Shown one piece after another: positions 18,451-24,449 of a stretch of 39,877 bases of DNA (position 1 is the stretch's first letter; every line of letters begins with the position of its first letter). The notes under the pieces were generated by a model. The model was not told the DNA's origin. It worked only from the letters and a program-made list of their open reading frames with translations, and ran no database searches. A program made the translations under genes and the position numbers. This stretch comes from Minisyncoccota bacterium (lineage in GTDB: Bacteria > Patescibacteriota > Minisyncoccia > Minisyncoccales > CSSED10-335), in NCBI GenBank assembly GCA_028701035.1, contig JAQVRO010000002.1, positions 30,226-70,102 of the forward strand. The letters are read 5' to 3'.

Positions 18451-19914
18451 ATGACTGGAAACGAATCAATTCTTAGTTTCAAAAAGGTATCATTTGAATA
18501 TTCAGGGAATAAGCCTATATTAGATGAGGTTGATTTTTCTATACGCCGAGGAACAAAAACAACTATTATGGGACAAAATGGAGCGGGTAAGAGCACTATA
18601 TTCAAATTAATCACTAAAGAAAATGAGCCAGAAGACGGTGTTGTAAATATTGCAAGCAATCTTTCAATTGCTATCTCTCGTCAAGTAATCCCACAAGAAG
18701 AATTAAAGCTTACTGTTAAAGAATTTTTTGAGAAAGCAATGTCAAACTGCTCTATAAAAAAGATTTATAATATTGACCCTAAGATAGATGAGGTGCTAGA
18801 AGCGGTTAACTTTGAAGCACCGCATGATAAAGTTATTGGTTCTTTTTCTGGCGGACAACAATCAAGATTACTTCTTGCCTCTGCTCTTATTCAAAACCCA
18901 GACTTGCTTTTATTAGACGAACCAACTAATAACCTAGACAGAGCGGGGATAGAACATCTTACAAAGTTTTTAATTGATTACAATAAAACTTGCATTGTTA
19001 TCTCTCACGATACCAATTTACTAAATAGTTTTACAGACGGAGTTTTGTATTTGGACATTTTTACCAGAAAGATAGATCAATATAGGGGAAACTATTTCGA
19101 TGTAAGAGACCAAATAATCGCCCGTCAAGAAAAAGAAAAAAGCAAGAACGCTCAACTAAAAAAGGAGATAATAGAGAATAAAGAGAAAGCCAACTTCTTT
19201 GCTAAGAAAGGAGGTAATATGCGTCTTGTCGCTAAGAAAATGAGAGAAAAGGCACAAGATGCCGAAGAAAGCATTGTTGGACTAAAGAGGGAGGATAAGA
19301 CAATTCATCCTTTTGTTATTTCTTCGCAAAAAGACATTAAAGGGGAAATAGTTAATATCTCTAGTTTTAAGATTCTAAAAAACAACAAGTTAGTACAAAA
19401 AAAGACGAATGTAGAGATTAGAAGAAACGAGCACCTTTTACTTCGGGGTCCTAATGGTATTGGGAAAAGCACTCTTTTGGAATCTATTGCAAAAAACGAA
19501 GCCGAGGGAACTAGAATAGCTTCTGGTGTGAATATTGGATATTATCGCCAGGATTTTTCAAACTTGAATTTTAAAGATACAGTATATAAATCTCTTTTAA
19601 TGGCTTCTCAAAAACATACAGAAGCTGAAATGAGAAAAATAGCGGCCGGTTTCCTTATCACAGGCGATGTGATTAATTCAAAGATTGAAGAGTTATCAGA
19701 GGGCCAAAAAGGACTCCTTTCATTTGCAAGGCTTGTTTTGCAAGAGCCCGGGCTTCTTATCTTGGACGAACCTACAAATCATATAAACTTTCGCCACATT
19801 AATGTTATTGCAGAAGCATTAAATAAATATGATGGGGCAATGATAATAGTTAGCCATGTGTCAGATTTTATAGATAAAATTCGCATTGATCATTATTTAG
19901 ATTTGGAGAAGTAA
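18451..19914 (+). CDS. ABC-F family ATPase (two ABC cassettes, no TM domain).
   Basis: Each cassette has Walker A, signature and Walker B motifs: GQNGAGKST / FSGGQQSRL / LLLDEPTNNLD and GPNGIGKST / LSEGQKG / LILDEPTNHI. A charged linker joins them. Confidence 0.85.
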   Translation: MTGNESILSFKKVSFEYSGNKPILDEVDFSIRRGTKTTIMGQNGAGKSTIFKLITKENEPEDGVVNIASNLSIAISRQVIPQEELKLTVKEFFEKAMSNCSIKKIYNIDPKIDEVLEAVNFEAPHDKVIGSFSGGQQSRLLLASALIQNPDLLLLDEPTNNLDRAGIEHLTKFLIDYNKTCIVISHDTNLLNSFTDGVLYLDIFTRKIDQYRGNYFDVRDQIIARQEKEKSKNAQLKKEIIENKEKANFFAKKGGNMRLVAKKMREKAQDAEESIVGLKREDKTIHPFVISSQKDIKGEIVNISSFKILKNNKLVQKKTNVEIRRNEHLLLRGPNGIGKSTLLESIAKNEAEGTRIASGVNIGYYRQDFSNLNFKDTVYKSLLMASQKHTEAEMRKIAAGFLITGDVINSKIEELSEGQKGLLSFARLVLQEPGLLILDEPTNHINFRHINVIAEALNKYDGAMIIVSHVSDFIDKIRIDHYLDLEK

Positions 19915-20005
19915 CATCAAAGTGATTGGGGTATTTTTCTAGCTAAACTACTTCTCCTTTCTGGACCCTAGATTAAGTATTTTCTAATCCAGTAATGAGC
20001 ATTGT

Positions 20006-20091
20006 ATTAAGGATGTCGGATTAAGGAGCTTAGCTCCTTAATTATGGAAGATGAGCATGAAATTCAAGCTATCGTTGCGTTGGACAAGACT
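20006..20091 (+). repeat. Composite intergenic element, copy 2. It has an ATTAAGGA direct repeat, the hairpin TTAAGGAGC-TTA-GCTCCTTAA (20021-20041), a TTCAAGCTAT box and CGTTGCGTTGGACAAGACT (20073-20091).
   Basis: It aligns to 1-95. A degenerate extra unit (CTAGATTAAG...CTAATC) lies at about 19967-19990. Confidence 0.7.
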
Positions 20092-20096
20092 TATTG

Positions 20097-20124
20097 TTGA
20101 CATATAGAATAATTTGGATATAAT
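20097..20124 (+). promoter_or_regulatory. Promoter TTGACA-16 nt-TATAAT.
   Basis: Both hexamers are consensus. The -35 lies 5 nt downstream of the conserved box, the same spacing as in copy 1. Confidence 0.55.
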
Positions 20125-20132
20125 TAACCATA

Positions 20133-20198
20133 ATGATTATTACCATACAAAACAAATTCTTTTTTAGCCCCGATATTCGCGGTGCTTGTTTGGTGTAG
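20133..20198 (+). CDS. Candidate leaderless mini-ORF / leader peptide MIITIQNKFFFSPDIRGACLV (21 aa).
   Basis: The ATG lies 8 nt after the -10 box. Three consecutive Phe codons sit immediately 5' of the terminator's left arm, and the stop codon lies in the terminator loop. It is too short to assess statistically. Confidence 0.3.
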   Translation: MIITIQNKFFFSPDIRGACLV

Positions 20199-20244
20199 AT
20201 AATAAAACCAGAAGGGCCCCGCGAATACGGGGCTCTTTTTGTTT
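20166..20244 (+). terminator. Strong intrinsic terminator / attenuator hairpin in the leader of the ATP-grasp operon.
   Basis: AGCCCCGATATTCGCGG (20166-20182) pairs with CCGCGAATACGGGGCT (20219-20234). That gives 16 bp with one bulge. CTTTTTGTTT follows. Confidence 0.65.
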
Positions 20245-20250
20245 GGCGGT

Positions 20251-20282
20251 CGATTCTTTTGTTTTTTAGAGTAAAAGAATCG
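20251..20282 (+). promoter_or_regulatory. Second leader hairpin CGATTCTTTT-N12-AAAAGAATCG.
   Basis: It is a perfect 10-bp stem with no U tract. It lies 45 nt upstream of the ATG at 20328, which has an AAGGTGA SD. Confidence 0.45.
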
Positions 20283-20327
20283 GCTTCTAAACGAGGTCGG
20301 TATAGTTCTTTAACAAGGTGATGCTAT

Positions 20328-21476
20328 ATGATTAGAATACATAATCCAATTATGGCTCTTCCCGGGTTTTCGTTTCCTGGAATAGAGGCCTACAGTACTC
20401 GTGCCATGACTGATGTTGGCGGGATTACTATAGTTGCCGATTGTGGCAACAAAGAATCGTTGTTAGATGCACTTGAGTATTACAATTCTATTGGTCTGGG
20501 ACCCGAAGAGCTATTGTTTGTTAGCGCTCCCAATGGAGATATTTATCATTCAATATTAAAGGACAAGGCATTAAAAAGAGAGATATTCTCTTTAGCTTCA
20601 GAGGGTCACAAGATTGAATTCTTTTGTACTCGTGGAGACATAGAGAGTAACTTTATCAAATCTCTAGGCCTAGATTGGTCGGACACTGTTTCTTTGCCCT
20701 GTCGTTTTGCTGATAGGTGGAATAATAAGAGCAACTTAAGAAGGGTGGCTATTAAAAACAATCTTGATTACTTGTTCCCAGTATTTAGTATTATTGAGAA
20801 TGGTAATATTGATTTAGGCATTACTAAAAGATTCTCCGAGGTTGTGGTAAAGCCACCACTTTGGGCTTCGGGGCAAGGAATGGTATTTGGTAGTGGGCCT
20901 GGTGTTATTGATGAGTATCGTTCTTTGCATGGTAAAATTCCCAAAGACACTATTATCGAAGAGTCTTTAGGTGAGCATACGCCAATGTCTGTAGTCGCTC
21001 GAATTAAGAAGGGTGTTGTTGCTGATAAGTGGTACACTGAACAACATTGTCCGCGTAGCGGAAAATTTGTTTCCCACACGGGTTCTGTCTTGGGAGATAT
21101 GCCTAATATTACAAAACAAGACCAATGTTGGATGGATAGTGTTCTCAACGCTTTTTTAAAAATCATGGTTAAAGAGAATCCTACTATTACTGGAATTGTT
21201 AACTTTGACTGTGCCAAAAATAGCAATGGTAATTATGTTTTGGAGTGTAATTCTAGGATAACTTTTTCAACATATATTAGAGAGATTCAGAAGGCAATGG
21301 GTAATAGGACCTGCATTTTTCATCGTCTGGAGACAAGCGCTAGAAGCTTTAAAGACTTAAAGTTGAAAGATGATATTATACCAATTGTGCCTGGGTGTCT
21401 CAATAGTGGTTATTGCTACATTGTGGTTGTGGCTGATTCATATAGTGAAGCGATAGACAAGGCGAGAGGTATTTAA
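20328..21476 (+). CDS. ATP-grasp fold ligase-like protein.
   Basis: The 382 aa product has VVVKPPLWASGQGMVFG (phosphate-binding-loop-like), IIEESLGEH and a C-terminal YVLECNSRITFST (E-x-N metal site context). The substrate is unknown. Confidence 0.6.
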   Translation: MIRIHNPIMALPGFSFPGIEAYSTRAMTDVGGITIVADCGNKESLLDALEYYNSIGLGPEELLFVSAPNGDIYHSILKDKALKREIFSLASEGHKIEFFCTRGDIESNFIKSLGLDWSDTVSLPCRFADRWNNKSNLRRVAIKNNLDYLFPVFSIIENGNIDLGITKRFSEVVVKPPLWASGQGMVFGSGPGVIDEYRSLHGKIPKDTIIEESLGEHTPMSVVARIKKGVVADKWYTEQHCPRSGKFVSHTGSVLGDMPNITKQDQCWMDSVLNAFLKIMVKENPTITGIVNFDCAKNSNGNYVLECNSRITFSTYIREIQKAMGNRTCIFHRLETSARSFKDLKLKDDIIPIVPGCLNSGYCYIVVVADSYSEAIDKARGI

Positions 21477-21507
21477 AACTTTCGCCTTTTATTATATAGT
21501 ATTAAAT

Positions 21508-22227
21508 ATGAGGTATTTTGAATCTTTTAAAAACATTAATTCACCTATAATATTTACTTGCGAGCATGCATCTAGCTCTATACCGCCAGAATATGATAAT
21601 TTAGGATTAACCAAGAATCAATTAGAAAGGGCTAAAGATCTTTTTGACCCCGGAGCATTGGATTTAGCAATATTCTTAAATAAAAAAATACCCAGTAGTT
21701 TAATTTATCCTCTCTTCTCTAGATTGTTTATTGATGCTAATAGGAATATTGGTTCTTCAAATTATAATAATAAGCACCATGCGCCAGCTCTTAAAACGGA
21801 GCTTTTGCTTGACGATAACCTAATTCCTATACCTGGAAACTTAGATGCCGATGAGGCTCTAAGATGGAACGAATATGTAAAACCTTATTATTCATACGTT
21901 AAGGATCTATCTCAATCTCTTTTAGAGAAATTTGATAATGTCTATTTATTCCAAATCCATTCTTTTTATCCTGAGTATGGTGGAGAAATAAGAAAAGAAG
22001 ACATTGGCATAATACATAATAATTTGGAGGTAGCTAAAAAGATAATTAAAGAAATAGATGGTCTAGAAGTTGGAGATAACAAACCATGGGGTATGAAGGC
22101 TGTTGGTGGCGGAGTTTTTCATAATTTAGATAATATAAATGTTATTGGGATAGATGTGAACAATAAGCATTTAGACTCTCCAAATAATATTGGAAATATT
22201 TTGTGTAAAGTTTTAAAGAATTTATGA
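21508..22227 (+). CDS. N-formylglutamate amidohydrolase (FGase, PF05013-like) family hydrolase.
   Basis: The family-typical motifs are IIFTCEHASSSIP, FSRLFIDANRN and LFQIHSF. Confidence 0.7.
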   Translation: MRYFESFKNINSPIIFTCEHASSSIPPEYDNLGLTKNQLERAKDLFDPGALDLAIFLNKKIPSSLIYPLFSRLFIDANRNIGSSNYNNKHHAPALKTELLLDDNLIPIPGNLDADEALRWNEYVKPYYSYVKDLSQSLLEKFDNVYLFQIHSFYPEYGGEIRKEDIGIIHNNLEVAKKIIKEIDGLEVGDNKPWGMKAVGGGVFHNLDNINVIGIDVNNKHLDSPNNIGNILCKVLKNL

Positions 22228-23492
22228 CTCAAGAAGAAGCGTTACAAATTTTAAAAAGTGGACGGAGTGTTTTTTTAACTGGGCCCGCAGGAAGTGGAAA
22301 GACTTATGTTCTTAAGGAATATATAAGATTTCTTAGAAAGGAGAAAAAGCCAGTCGGGATTACTGCCTCTACTGGAGTTGCCGCTACACACTTAAATGGT
22401 ATGACTATACATTCATGGACAGGTATGGGTATTTTGGATACTCTTACTAAGAACGATTTATCAAAGATTATGCGCAAAAAGAACGTTAAATCGCGTATTT
22501 GTAACTCACATGTATTAATTATCGATGAGATTTCTATGCTTTCTGCTGGGAGCATAAATATTGTAGAAGAAATTATGCGCAAGACTCGTGGATCTTGGGA
22601 TCCTTTTGGAGGAATACAGGTAATTCTTTGTGGCGACTTCTTTCAACTCCCTCCTGTAAATAGAAGTGGAATAGAATCTATGGGTCAGTTTGCTTATCAT
22701 TCGCGTGCCTGGCGAGAACTTAATCCAGATGTGTGTTACCTTACAGAGCAGTATCGTCATCAAGATCAAGATTATATAAAGGTTTTAAATGCCATTAGAA
22801 CTAATAGTGTTGATAATCAAATAATAGAGATTTTGAATCAAAGAATTAAATCGGGGTCTAATGGAGGAACCAACCTATATACTCATAATGTTGATGCTGA
22901 TAAAATAAACGATAGGGAACTTGCTAAATTAGATGATAAAGAGGTTGTATTTCATATGCATAGTTCTGGGCCAACTGCTCTAGTAAATGTACTCTACAAG
23001 AGTTGCCTTGCCTCTGAAGTTTTAATTCTTAAAAAGGGAGCATTTGTGATGTTTTTGAGAAATAATTTTGAAGAGGGTTATGTAAATGGCACTTTTGGAG
23101 TTGTGGATAGCTTTGATAACGAAGGATGCCCTGTTGTGCGCACTAACCAAGGACGATTTATTCATGTTTTGCCTGAGGACTGGAGAATTGAAAACGAATC
23201 TGGGAAATTATTAGCTAGTATCACTCAATTACCCTTGCGTTTAGCGTGGGCGATTACGATTCATAAGAGTCAAGGAATGACTATTGATACTGCCGAAATG
23301 GATTTGTCTAAATGTTTTGAACCGGGAATGGGTTATGTAGCACTTTCTCGAGTGCGGACACTAAAAGGCATATCTTTGCGTGGCATTAACCAAATGGCTC
23401 TTAGGGTAAGTCCCGAAGTTGTGGATATGGATAAGGATTTTAGGCTTCTCTCAGAGCAGGTAGTAAAGGGGCTTCATAAGAAGGTTGAGTAA
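22224..23492 (+). CDS. Pif1/RecD-like SF1B DNA helicase.
   Basis: It has GPAGSGKTY (Walker A), IIDEISML (Walker B), ILCGDFFQLPPV, ITIHKSQGMTID and YVALSRVRTLKGISL. Its start forms an ATGA overlap with the FGase gene. Confidence 0.8.
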   Translation: MTQEEALQILKSGRSVFLTGPAGSGKTYVLKEYIRFLRKEKKPVGITASTGVAATHLNGMTIHSWTGMGILDTLTKNDLSKIMRKKNVKSRICNSHVLIIDEISMLSAGSINIVEEIMRKTRGSWDPFGGIQVILCGDFFQLPPVNRSGIESMGQFAYHSRAWRELNPDVCYLTEQYRHQDQDYIKVLNAIRTNSVDNQIIEILNQRIKSGSNGGTNLYTHNVDADKINDRELAKLDDKEVVFHMHSSGPTALVNVLYKSCLASEVLILKKGAFVMFLRNNFEEGYVNGTFGVVDSFDNEGCPVVRTNQGRFIHVLPEDWRIENESGKLLASITQLPLRLAWAITIHKSQGMTIDTAEMDLSKCFEPGMGYVALSRVRTLKGISLRGINQMALRVSPEVVDMDKDFRLLSEQVVKGLHKKVE

Positions 23493-23494
23493 TC

Positions 23495-23536
23495 TGTTCA
23501 AGCTATAAAACATAGTGTTCAAGCTATGGAAAATAG
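23495..23536 (+). repeat. Tandem 21-nt direct repeat x2 (TGTTCAAGCTATAAAACATAG / TGTTCAAGCTATGGAAAATAG).
   Basis: Identity is 18/21, read directly. The core TTCAAGCTAT also occurs in copy 2 (20063-20072). Confidence 0.8.
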
Positions 23537-23561
23537 TTGACAGTTAATTAATCTTAATTTT

Positions 23562-23657
23562 AAGGAGCCTAGATTAAGGCGCCCGGCGCCTTAATGGAAA
23601 GGAGCCTAGATTAAGGCGCTCGGCGCCTTAACGGAAAGCGTTGCGTTGGATAATACT
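23562..23657 (+). repeat. Composite intergenic element, copy 3. It has a 37-nt unit duplicated in tandem (23562-23598, 23599-23635), each with the hairpin TTAAGGCGC-NNN-GCGCCTTAA, followed by the box CGTTGCGTTGGATAATACT (23639-23657).
   Basis: The units differ at 2 positions. The stem carries a compensatory A:T to C:G change relative to copies 1 and 2. Confidence 0.8.
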
Positions 23658-23661
23658 TTTC

Positions 23662-23690
23662 TTTGCACAAAATTTTAAAAATGCTATAAT
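23662..23690 (+). promoter_or_regulatory. Promoter TTTGCA/TTGCAC-16/17 nt-TATAAT.
   Basis: The -10 box ends 6 nt before the ATG at 23697, and there is no SD. Confidence 0.5.
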
Positions 23691-23696
23691 GGAAGT

Positions 23697-24449
23697 ATGT
23701 CAAAATACTATAATCCAAATAGGGCTAGTAATAAATATATTCCTGACTCTAACCAACAATTTCGTATCAGTAGAAGTAAGATAGATTTGTTTCTAGAGTG
23801 TCCGAGATGTTTCTATCTAGATCGAGCGCTTGGTATTGGCCGTCCTCCCGGATATCCGTTTTCTCTTAATTCGGCTGTTGATGCTTTACTTAAAAAAGAG
23901 TTTGATTCTCATCGAGAAAGATCAACGCCACATCCTTTAATGGAAGAATATGGAATAAAGGCAATTCCTTTTCAGCACGAAAAAATGGAAGAATGGAGAG
24001 ATTCTTTAAGAAGGGGTATTACTTATCTTCACCAACCAACAAACTTAGTAATTACTGGAGGAGTAGATGATGTTTGGGTAGACCCTAAGGGCGAATTAAT
24101 TATTGTGGATTATAAGGCAACTTCTAAAAATGGCGAGGTTAGTATTGATGCCGAATGGCAAGATTCTTATAAGAGACAAATGGAAGTCTATCAATGGCTT
24201 TTTAGACAGAACAACTTTAGAGTATCTAATACGGGATATTTTGTGTACTGCAATGGAGATGCTGATCGCGAAGCGTTTAATAATACTTTGAATTTTGATA
24301 TTAAAGTAATCCCTTATGAGGGTAATGATTCTTGGATTGAAAATACAATTCACGAAATTCATAATTGTCTTAATTCTAAGAGTCTGCCCGAACCAGGGGA
24401 CGATTGCGATTTTTGTAAATATCGCAATGCAGTTAAAATATTAGAATAA
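23697..24449 (+). CDS. PD-(D/E)XK nuclease superfamily protein (RecB/Cas4-like) with four Cys.
   Basis: It has GGVDDVW...LIIVDYKAT (D...D/E-x-K), QMEVYQW (QxxxY), and CPRC near the N-terminus plus CDFC near the C-terminus. Confidence 0.7.
   Translation: MSKYYNPNRASNKYIPDSNQQFRISRSKIDLFLECPRCFYLDRALGIGRPPGYPFSLNSAVDALLKKEFDSHRERSTPHPLMEEYGIKAIPFQHEKMEEWRDSLRRGITYLHQPTNLVITGGVDDVWVDPKGELIIVDYKATSKNGEVSIDAEWQDSYKRQMEVYQWLFRQNNFRVSNTGYFVYCNGDADREAFNNTLNFDIKVIPYEGNDSWIENTIHEIHNCLNSKSLPEPGDDCDFCKYRNAVKILE

Follow-up and report, generated by a model that had tools for sequence, protein, structure and literature searches.

The pheL-pheA and pheM-pheST operons of Escherichia coli (Rfam family Phe_leader, RF01859) are preceded by a short, Phe-rich open reading frame (ORF), a terminator and an antiterminator that excludes it, and a ribosome stalled on the leader ORF causes read-through into the operon. 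In attenuation of the pyrBI type, the translating ribosome physically blocks the terminator hairpin. A sensory ORF built on a run of codons for a single amino acid has also been described in mycobacteria, where ribosomes that stall on the polycysteine run of leaderless short ORFs are reported to induce the downstream operon genes, the stalled ribosome unmasking a downstream ribosome-binding site (RBS) and thereby exerting translational control (Canestrari et al., bioRxiv 10.1101/834739). For the regulated genes, a counterpart is found in the staphylococcal hmrA/ldmS operon, which encodes an Asp-Met ligase and a Met-X peptidase and is controlled by Met/Cys starvation via CodY/CymR or an S-box riboswitch (PMC9486568). 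The present analysis concerns positions 20097-20327 of a 39,877-nucleotide stretch of DNA (hereafter, the window) from a Minisyncoccota bacterium (assembly GCA_028701035.1, contig JAQVRO010000002.1), a member of the candidate phyla radiation (CPR, Patescibacteria). Judged from its sequence, this region is probably a leader-peptide transcription attenuator that most likely senses charged tRNA-Phe and controls a cassette of two genes, encoding an ATP-grasp ligase and an FGase-family amidohydrolase, and shortage of Phe is the condition most likely to switch the pair on. Bacteria of the CPR have tiny genomes and are mostly unable to make their own amino acids, and to our knowledge little has been established about how they sense amino acid supply; a full-text literature search found no paper on leader-peptide attenuation in this group.

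The region begins with a predicted sigma-70-type promoter at 20097-20124 on the plus strand, which also carries the other leader elements and the two regulated genes described below. Its hexamers TTGACA (20097-20102) and TATAAT (20119-20124) match the consensus at 12 of 12 positions and are separated by a 16-nt spacer, and it is the best promoter-like site within 19000-22000. Eight nucleotides past the -10 box, an ATG codon (20133) that is not preceded by a Shine-Dalgarno sequence opens the leader ORF (20133-20198), which comprises 21 codons and the stop codon TAG (20196-20198) and would encode the peptide MIITIQNKFFFSPDIRGACLV. The putative sensor is formed by three consecutive Phe codons, TTC TTT TTT (F9-F11, 20157-20165), and the genome contains one tRNA-Phe gene, for tRNA-Phe(GAA). 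The ORF is probably leaderless, as its distance from the promoter suggests. Leaderless initiation is plausible here because six ATG-started ORFs of the same genome (62-524 codons) begin 5-9 nt past a strict TTGACA/-10 promoter, and leaderless mRNAs seem to be in regular use in this organism. ORFs starting at this distance from a strict TTGACA-N16-18-TATAAT-like promoter are located on contigs C29, C6, C28 and C18. Short ORFs in which a Phe run is followed by a terminator-like hairpin and a T run number two in the 580-kb assembly, i.e., the leader itself and one ORF on contig C38; the latter, considered as a second Phe-leader copy and hence as part of a Phe regulon, was judged spurious, by eye only.

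The Phe codons abut a long hairpin in which 20166-20182 pairs with 20219-20234, forming 7 + 9 bp with A20173 bulged. The helix continues inward via GCUU/GGGC and UUUGGU/ACCAGA, and the stop codon of the leader ORF thus falls in the apical loop. The predicted fold of the 206-nt leader has a free energy of -72.5 kcal/mol, compared with -44.4 ± 4.1 kcal/mol for dinucleotide shuffles (z = -6.9), none of 200 shuffles being as good. Segment 1 of this structure (AGCCCCG, 20166-20172) is predicted to pair with 20228-20234 if no ribosome covers it, extending the long helix to the U tract and giving the default off state. Segment 2 (20174-20194; UAUUCGCGG, GCUU and UUUGGU) lies inside the leader ORF and represents the 5′ arm of the antiterminator; its partner, the antiterminator 3′ arm at 20207-20227 (ACCAGA, GGGC and CCGCGAAUA), overlaps the 5′ arm and the loop of an intrinsic terminator. 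This terminator (20216-20244), which is predicted at the sequence level, consists of GCCCCG (20216-20221), the loop CGAAUA, CGGGGC (20228-20233) and a U tract; the hairpin is followed by UCUUUUUGUUU, and the tract at 20234-20244 reads T C TTTTT G TTT in the DNA. The short terminator hairpin (20216-20233) lies wholly within the right arm of the long one and has a predicted energy of -11.4 kcal/mol alone, compared with -22.7 to -24.8 kcal/mol for the antiterminator structure before segment 4 has been transcribed; the antiterminator duplex of the window has a z of -4.1 relative to shuffles. The antiterminator and the terminator are mutually exclusive, and the antiterminator is the stronger of the two, is non-random and covaries.

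Most of these elements had been noticed in an initial annotation made from the sequence alone, which pointed out the TTGACA-16-TATAAT promoter, the 21-codon ORF with its ATG 8 nt downstream, the FFF codons abutting the 5′ arm of a hairpin of 16 bp, the U tract of an intrinsic terminator behind that hairpin, and the stop codon in the hairpin loop; each is present, the hairpin with the bulge described above and the position of the stop codon as seen in the predicted fold. The annotation also read the region as a ribosome-mediated attenuator in front of an ATP-grasp operon, and that part of its proposal stands. It had further supposed that a ribosome occluding the left arm would by itself prevent termination, which is insufficient because the nested short terminator (20216-20233), a feature absent from that annotation, can form on its own. 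Occlusion of this sort matches attenuation of the pyrBI type; the window instead requires, and has, a separate antiterminator helix.

The effect of ribosome position was modeled by folding the RNA left free behind a ribosome, from a first free base at +11 to +16 relative to the A site to the end of the terminator. With the A site at codons 1-8 of the window's ORF, the terminator 3′ arm (20228-20234) is predicted to pair with 20166-20172, and the long helix abuts the U tract. With the A site at F9-F11, the 3′ arm remains unpaired, as it does marginally at K8 (largest offset) and S12 (smallest offset) and at no other codons; from P13 to the stop codon, the short terminator forms. A switch with three states can be proposed on this basis, in which transcription would start at, or a few bases from, the leader ATG. 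In state 1, with the leader free of ribosomes, segments 1 and 2 (20166-20194) would pair with 20207-20234, and the long helix abutting the U tract would keep the operon off. In state 2, a ribosome that has reached the stop codon at 20196 would melt segment 2, and the short terminator (20216-20233) would form and cause termination at about 20240-20244. In state 3, a ribosome waiting for Phe-tRNA at codons 9-11 would cover segment 1 and leave segment 2 free; the antiterminator (20174-20194/20207-20227) would then form, hold the terminator 5′ arm and leave CGGGGC(U) single-stranded, and RNA polymerase would enter the operon. The sequence itself shows the individual elements, the competing pairings with their conservation and covariation, and the geometry; that the ORF is translated, that transcription terminates in vivo, that Phe is sensed and that the long helix acts as a terminator in state 1 is what we infer from this arrangement.

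Loci encoding homologues of the ligase were recovered from species genomes and metagenomes; records containing homologues bear the names Candidatus Vogelbacteria, Patescibacteria group and Magasanikbacteria. After duplicates had been merged (L003 = L007; L004 = L041; L008 = L009 = L010), five independent leaders were available, namely those of the window, L003, L004, L006 and L008. At a further locus, L005, the ligase is 96% identical to that of the window and the leader is near-identical; the ligases of L003, L004, L006 and L008 are 44-46% identical to it, and the flanking genes differ. A gene for an FGase homologue adjoins the ATP-grasp gene in all five close loci, and because the hydrolase always accompanies the ligase while the flanking genes differ, the conserved unit comprises the leader, the ligase and the hydrolase. 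The four relatives of the window share a common layout of TTGACA promoter, Phe-run ORF (21-28 codons), GC hairpin with T run, AU-rich hairpin, small hairpin, RBS and gene, the GC hairpins and the T runs behind them being equivalent in all of the relatives. Their ATG codons lie 6-8 nt past a -10-like hexamer (16 nt in L008), again without a Shine-Dalgarno sequence. The leader peptides of these four loci are MDILLNNTFFFFFTRSEGGVV, MLRQINDTFFFFFFTSGSRGVV, MLERTSTQAVFFFSFTTPAQASLF and MIDKNLIKNNFFFFFRFLKPGSRGVFKC; they contain FFFFF, FFFFFF, FFFSF and FFFFFRF, encoded by in-frame Phe runs of 3-6 codons. Every C in the Phe runs occupies codon position 3, and the runs are therefore to be regarded as UUY codons and not as a generic pyrimidine tract. 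The initial annotation had named conservation of the ORF, the Phe run and the hairpin upstream of orthologous genes as a check on its proposal, and loss of frame or start in relatives as a finding that would speak against it: all three elements are kept in four other independent loci, with both the frame and the start conserved.

The antiterminator is likewise a common property of these leaders. Before segment 4 is transcribed, the helix that holds the terminator 5′ arm has a predicted energy of -15 to -25 kcal/mol in the five leaders, compared with -9.4 to -15.8 kcal/mol for the terminators alone. In all five loci, the complementarity of the 3′ part of the ORF to the 5′ flank, 5′ arm and loop of the terminator exceeds that of dinucleotide shuffles (z from -2.3 to -6.6); the observed value is reached by at most 2 of 1000 shuffles in four loci and by 20 of 1000 in the fifth. 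RNAalifold recovers the leader helix from a plain MAFFT alignment. In the alignment of this helix (A3), 82% of the cells are paired and compensatory changes occur in 7 of the 20 pairs, with a covariation score of 0.343, compared with 0.208 ± 0.037 in shuffles, none of 500 of which reach it, and with 0.07-0.15 in slid controls. In the footprint model, the range of A-site positions that leaves the terminator 3′ arm unpaired is as narrow in the relatives as in the window, and it includes the last Phe codon of the cluster in five of the five loci. According to this model, all five loci possess the geometry of leader-peptide attenuators, in which the antiterminator survives a stall at Phe but is lost once a ribosome has moved on to the stop codon.

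Contigs of four metagenomes supplied strain variants of the window's leader. Of six changes in the 5′ half of the ORF, four alter the amino acid (T4A, N7S, K8N and F9L), and one Phe change is silent; C20168T, likewise silent, retains its segment 1 pair as a G-U wobble. The changes listed for 20166-20325 are limited to C20168T, one substitution and one insertion within the apical loop, and A20291G, which falls in the loop of the hairpin at 20282-20298 (hairpin 3, see below). Such a distribution is what would be expected if the RNA structure, and not the peptide, were under constraint.

More distant relatives carry a different sensor. In L011, L012 and L013, the ATP-grasp protein is 23-25% identical to that of the window and its partner is a GATase1/peptidase C26 protein instead of an FGase homologue. 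Leaders with an ORF and a terminator are located at L011:2789-2923, upstream of position 2730 on the minus strand of L012, and at L013:1204-1347, and their putative sensor stretches are mixtures of F, I and L (FILISLFI, FSLFIKIIEILLVIL and VFGLFIMF). Nested alternative pairing is predicted in L011 and L012; the folds of L013 show no antiterminator, and a classical 1:2/2:3 layout was read from its sequence by eye. The still more distant homologues L014-L016 have no such leader. Since only the FGase-linked subfamily has the Phe run, the signal is more likely to be codon-specific. Beyond these loci, a search with the leader DNA gave no match in 40 relatives, a single-protein search of genome contigs found no related loci, and a scan of viral contigs found none.

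At gathering thresholds, Rfam models detect two tRNAs in the whole window and nothing on the leader. In a permissive search, the best match of the leader is Phe_leader (RF01859; 28.1 bits, E = 0.012), followed by the Thr and Leu leaders, all of them below threshold; an Rfam family explaining the structure without translation, which the initial annotation had regarded as potential counterevidence, was not among the results, and only leader-peptide families appear. The window resembles the pheL and pheM systems in its short ORF with Phe codons, its terminator, its mutually exclusive antiterminator and the predicted read-through upon stalling. However, homology to these systems is undetectable (28.1 bits, the gathering score being 55), the ORF, which is probably leaderless, includes only three Phe codons, and no separate 1:2 hairpin is present; instead, segments 1 + 2 stack coaxially with 4 + 3, and the terminator is nested in the right arm. 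Furthermore, the controlled genes are a ligase/amidohydrolase pair rather than genes for Phe biosynthesis or PheRS, and they are found in a CPR bacterium whose genome measures about 0.6 Mb.

The first regulated gene (20328-21476) encodes an ATP-grasp ligase of 382 amino acids, which a fold search assigns to the L-amino-acid-ligase/PGM1 type. A fold search was needed to place it because the sequence searches gave nothing usable, with no match in Pfam or from the PDB sequence profile and one weak, sub-threshold match in NCBIfam (PRK06849, E = 0.011). The AlphaFold2 model (pLDDT 82.5) shows an ATP-grasp fold, and its top Foldseek matches are BesA (8yi6), LdmS (7r8p), a Streptomyces peptide ligase (8ynd) and PGM1 (3wvq/3wvr), with E values of about 1e-12 to 1e-15; many ATP-grasp enzymes are matched with E values of 1e-11 to 1e-15. 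The TM score by query is 0.69-0.76 relative to PGM1, and the free-amino-acid ligases BesA, which we take to be a gamma-glutamyl ligase, and LdmS are equally among the top folds. The neighbours of the protein in a protein atlas agree with this fold and carry PreATP-grasp and PGM1_C domains, and residues K134, R138, D294, E306, N308 and R310 are invariant among 30 homologues. As modeled, the protein is a member of the ATP-grasp superfamily. Its family is rare, with 174 clusters at E ≤ 1e-3 among 1.84 billion representatives, and searches of 401 genomes from the order and 401 from the class recovered the gene in 1 and 2 of them, respectively, i.e., in the genome of the window and that of L004. 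The start position of the ligase agrees with that of its homologues, and the leader is accordingly non-coding with respect to the ligase gene.

The second regulated gene (21508-22227) encodes an FGase-family amidohydrolase (PF05013, Pfam E = 2.2e-17). Named members of the FGase and peptidase C26/GATase families act on glutamyl or N-acyl-glutamate bonds. By analogy, and speculatively, the two regulated enzymes would probably act on a Phe-containing amide or dipeptide, one making and the other hydrolysing it; one guess, by inference only, is a glutamyl-Phe compound as the product. The staphylococcal hmrA/ldmS operon likewise pairs an ATP-grasp L-amino-acid ligase with an amide hydrolase in two genes, its ligase LdmS (SAOUHSC_02373, 7r8p) being the second-best Foldseek match, and it resembles the reading proposed for the present locus in that the signal is starvation for the amino acid handled and in that some species use a terminator/antiterminator riboswitch of the S-box type (PMC9486568). 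The differences are that the hydrolase there is an M20D peptidase and here a member of the FGase family, and that the signal there is SAM or CodY/CymR and here a leader peptide; the sequence identity between the window's ligase and LdmS is about 14%.

Two further hairpins separate the terminator from the ligase gene. Hairpin 2 is a long AU-rich helix (20239-20265/20268-20294) with a perfect core in which CGATTCTTTT (20251-20260) pairs with AAAAGAATCG (20273-20282); the perfect 10-bp hairpin noted earlier at 20251-20282 is thus part of a longer helix. The outer pairs of hairpin 2 use the U tract of the terminator and compete with hairpin 3 (GGCUUC-UAAAC-GAGGUC, 20282-20298), which is an alternative to them. 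Small hairpins with other stems occupy the same place in the relatives (GUUUC/GAAAC, GGUUC/GAACC, GUUUCC/GGGAAAC and GGUCC/GGACC). In the alignment of hairpin 2 (A4), 91% of the cells are paired, 14 of the 26 pairs are compensatory and none of 500 shuffles reaches the covariation score, making this covariation the strongest of the region. Hairpin 2 could serve in RNA processing or stabilisation, or it could be a spacer with an architectural role.

The ligase gene is preceded by the Shine-Dalgarno-like sequence AAGGUGAU, which together with the ATG spans 20315-20330. Around the start codon, 20296-20307 is predicted to pair with 20323-20334 (p about 0.9), with the Shine-Dalgarno sequence in the loop, and the strain variant A20326G retains this pairing as a wobble. 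In L003, L004, L006 and L008, the Phe tract could base-pair (-10 to -12 kcal/mol) with an unusually long stretch of 10-17 purines at the RBS of the ligase (L003:2784-2798 with 2958-2985; L004:2796-2813 with 2955-2979; L006 and L008 likewise), and in full-length folds of three of these four leaders the resulting helix closes a junction that encloses the other hairpins. The same pairing was considered for the window and rejected (duplex -3.0 kcal/mol, expected pairs 0.01). From these predicted folds, we conjecture a second, translational layer of control in the relatives. Like the mycobacterial polycysteine ORFs, the leader ORF of the window is probably a leaderless sensory ORF in which codons for a single amino acid follow one another, whereas its main switch would be an intrinsic terminator and that of mycobacteria is RBS unmasking (10.1101/834739); a second layer of the mycobacterial type may exist in L003, L004, L006 and L008 but not in the window.

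The assembly, which comprises 580 kb in 41 contigs, is 91% complete and has a G+C content of 34%; the window is located on contig C35. The leader occupies a gap of 413 nt between an ABC-F gene (18451-19914) upstream and the 382-codon ligase gene downstream. The top match of the ABC-F gene is the NCBIfam model "ribosomal protection-like ABC-F", whose score of 324 bits is below the cut-off of 380. Between the stop codon of the ABC-F gene and the leader promoter lies one copy of a REP-like repeat family, a palindrome of the form TTAAGGNGC-NNN-GCNCCTTAA with 54 copies in the 580-kb assembly. These palindromes are mostly arranged in intergenic tandem clusters with a spacing of 40-75 nt, and a variable stem position covaries as A:T or C:G; the copies of the window are at 14-37, 20019-20042 and about 23574-23650. 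In four metagenomes, the depth of 20006-20044 is roughly 5-80x that of its flanks. Downstream of the cassette, 22224-24449 encodes a Pif1-like SF1B helicase that overlaps the end of the FGase gene, followed, after another intergenic repeat element, by a PD-(D/E)XK nuclease; both are absent beside the ligase/FGase pair at other loci.

Several points weigh against a Phe-responsive attenuator in this position. Its support comes from sequence comparison and predicted folds, and the evidence from covariation is supportive but not conclusive because there are only five independent sequences. The match to Phe_leader falls short of the gathering score, and a match of similar score (26.8 bits) on the minus strand indicates that it mostly reflects a generic hairpin with a U tract. 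The folding model describes an equilibrium, whereas attenuation is a kinetic process for which no pause hairpin was found here, and the long helix of state 1 is assumed to terminate transcription. The three Phe codons of the window make a weak sensor compared with pheL of E. coli, and in the natural variant T20157C the leader reads LFF, which shows that fewer than three Phe codons can be tolerated. Phe biosynthesis is not the function of the regulated genes, and the physiological logic therefore rests on analogy. Hairpins 2 and 3 are conserved and yet find no explanation in the attenuator model. Finally, PGM1-type ATP-grasp ligases use ribosomal peptides as substrates, and a role of the leader peptide as a precursor stays alive because the nearest folds include ligases of this type.

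Of the alternatives, the one that survives best, although it is unlikely, retains the attenuator and replaces Phe-tRNA as the signal by translation stress, by several hydrophobic amino acids or by a ribosome-targeting compound, as in the erm and cat leaders. The mixed F/I/L stretches of the distant subfamily, which contain no Phe run and seem similar in composition to drug-sensing leaders such as ErmCL, point in this direction, as do the LFF variant and the ribosome-protection-like ABC-F gene just upstream. Against this, all five FGase-linked leaders have a Phe run (3-6) with little else conserved in the peptide, the last Phe codon is always inside the predicted read-through interval, and the ABC-F gene is not linked to the leader among the relatives, L005 and other loci having other genes upstream.

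Somewhat less likely again is an untranslated structured RNA, either a terminated small RNA of about 110 nt acting in trans or a leader that binds a protein or metabolite, in which the ORF would be incidental. The very strong promoter with a terminator about 110 nt downstream would suit such an RNA, as would the covariation of hairpin 2, which the attenuator leaves unexplained. This alternative, which the initial annotation had raised, is less well supported: all five leaders retain an open reading frame and its start, with the Phe run in frame and C in third positions only, and the position of the stop codon within the antiterminator is likewise maintained; moreover, the gathering score is not attained by any Rfam family, and the leader DNA occurs once in the genome and always directly upstream of the same gene. 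Least likely, and likewise less well supported, is the other alternative of the initial annotation, a mini-ORF peptide that serves as a substrate or precursor of the ligase (RiPP-like or PGM1-type) with the hairpin as a leaky terminator. The PGM1 and Streptomyces peptide ligase folds, the PreATP-grasp and PGM1_C domains of the atlas neighbours, the co-encoded amidohydrolase and a loose peptide pattern, in which a polar N-terminus precedes a hydrophobic stretch, T/S and, close to the C-terminus, G/R-G, speak for it, but the five peptides share no Asp/Glu, Lys, Ser or Thr position and hence no conserved core with ligatable residues of the kind found in graspetides, the G/R-rich C-terminal motif is encoded by terminator-pairing bases and changes with the terminator sequence (L003, L006), strain changes in the N-terminal half of the peptide are mostly non-synonymous, the two-gene cassette has no conserved neighbour that encodes a transporter or protease, and a simple terminator needs neither a covarying antiterminator nor a stop codon inside it.

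A leader-peptide attenuator sensing charged tRNA-Phe thus remains the preferred explanation. Its mechanism is of a textbook class; its interest lies in the host group, in the genes that it would regulate and in how compactly its parts are nested. A conserved Phe-codon attenuator would mean that the classical switch with the ribosome as the sensor operates in the CPR group, and it points to leaderless translation of the sensor ORF. It would also give a testable hint that a rare ATP-grasp/FGase pair, whose ligase has no Pfam assignment, acts on phenylalanine. A broader proposal, which we offer tentatively and hold to be possible rather than probable, is that the leader may serve as a specificity label of ligase/hydrolase cassettes in the CPR, each induced by shortage of the amino acid that it handles (Phe in FGase-linked cassettes, and mixed F/I/L in those linked to GATase/C26). 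On this view, the ATP-grasp enzyme would synthesise or modify an amide that contains Phe, and possibly a glutamyl group, in the course of amino acid scavenging by an auxotrophic symbiont, and in the relatives the poly-Phe tract would act in addition as an anti-Shine-Dalgarno sequence, such that a single stalled ribosome would give both transcriptional and translational control.

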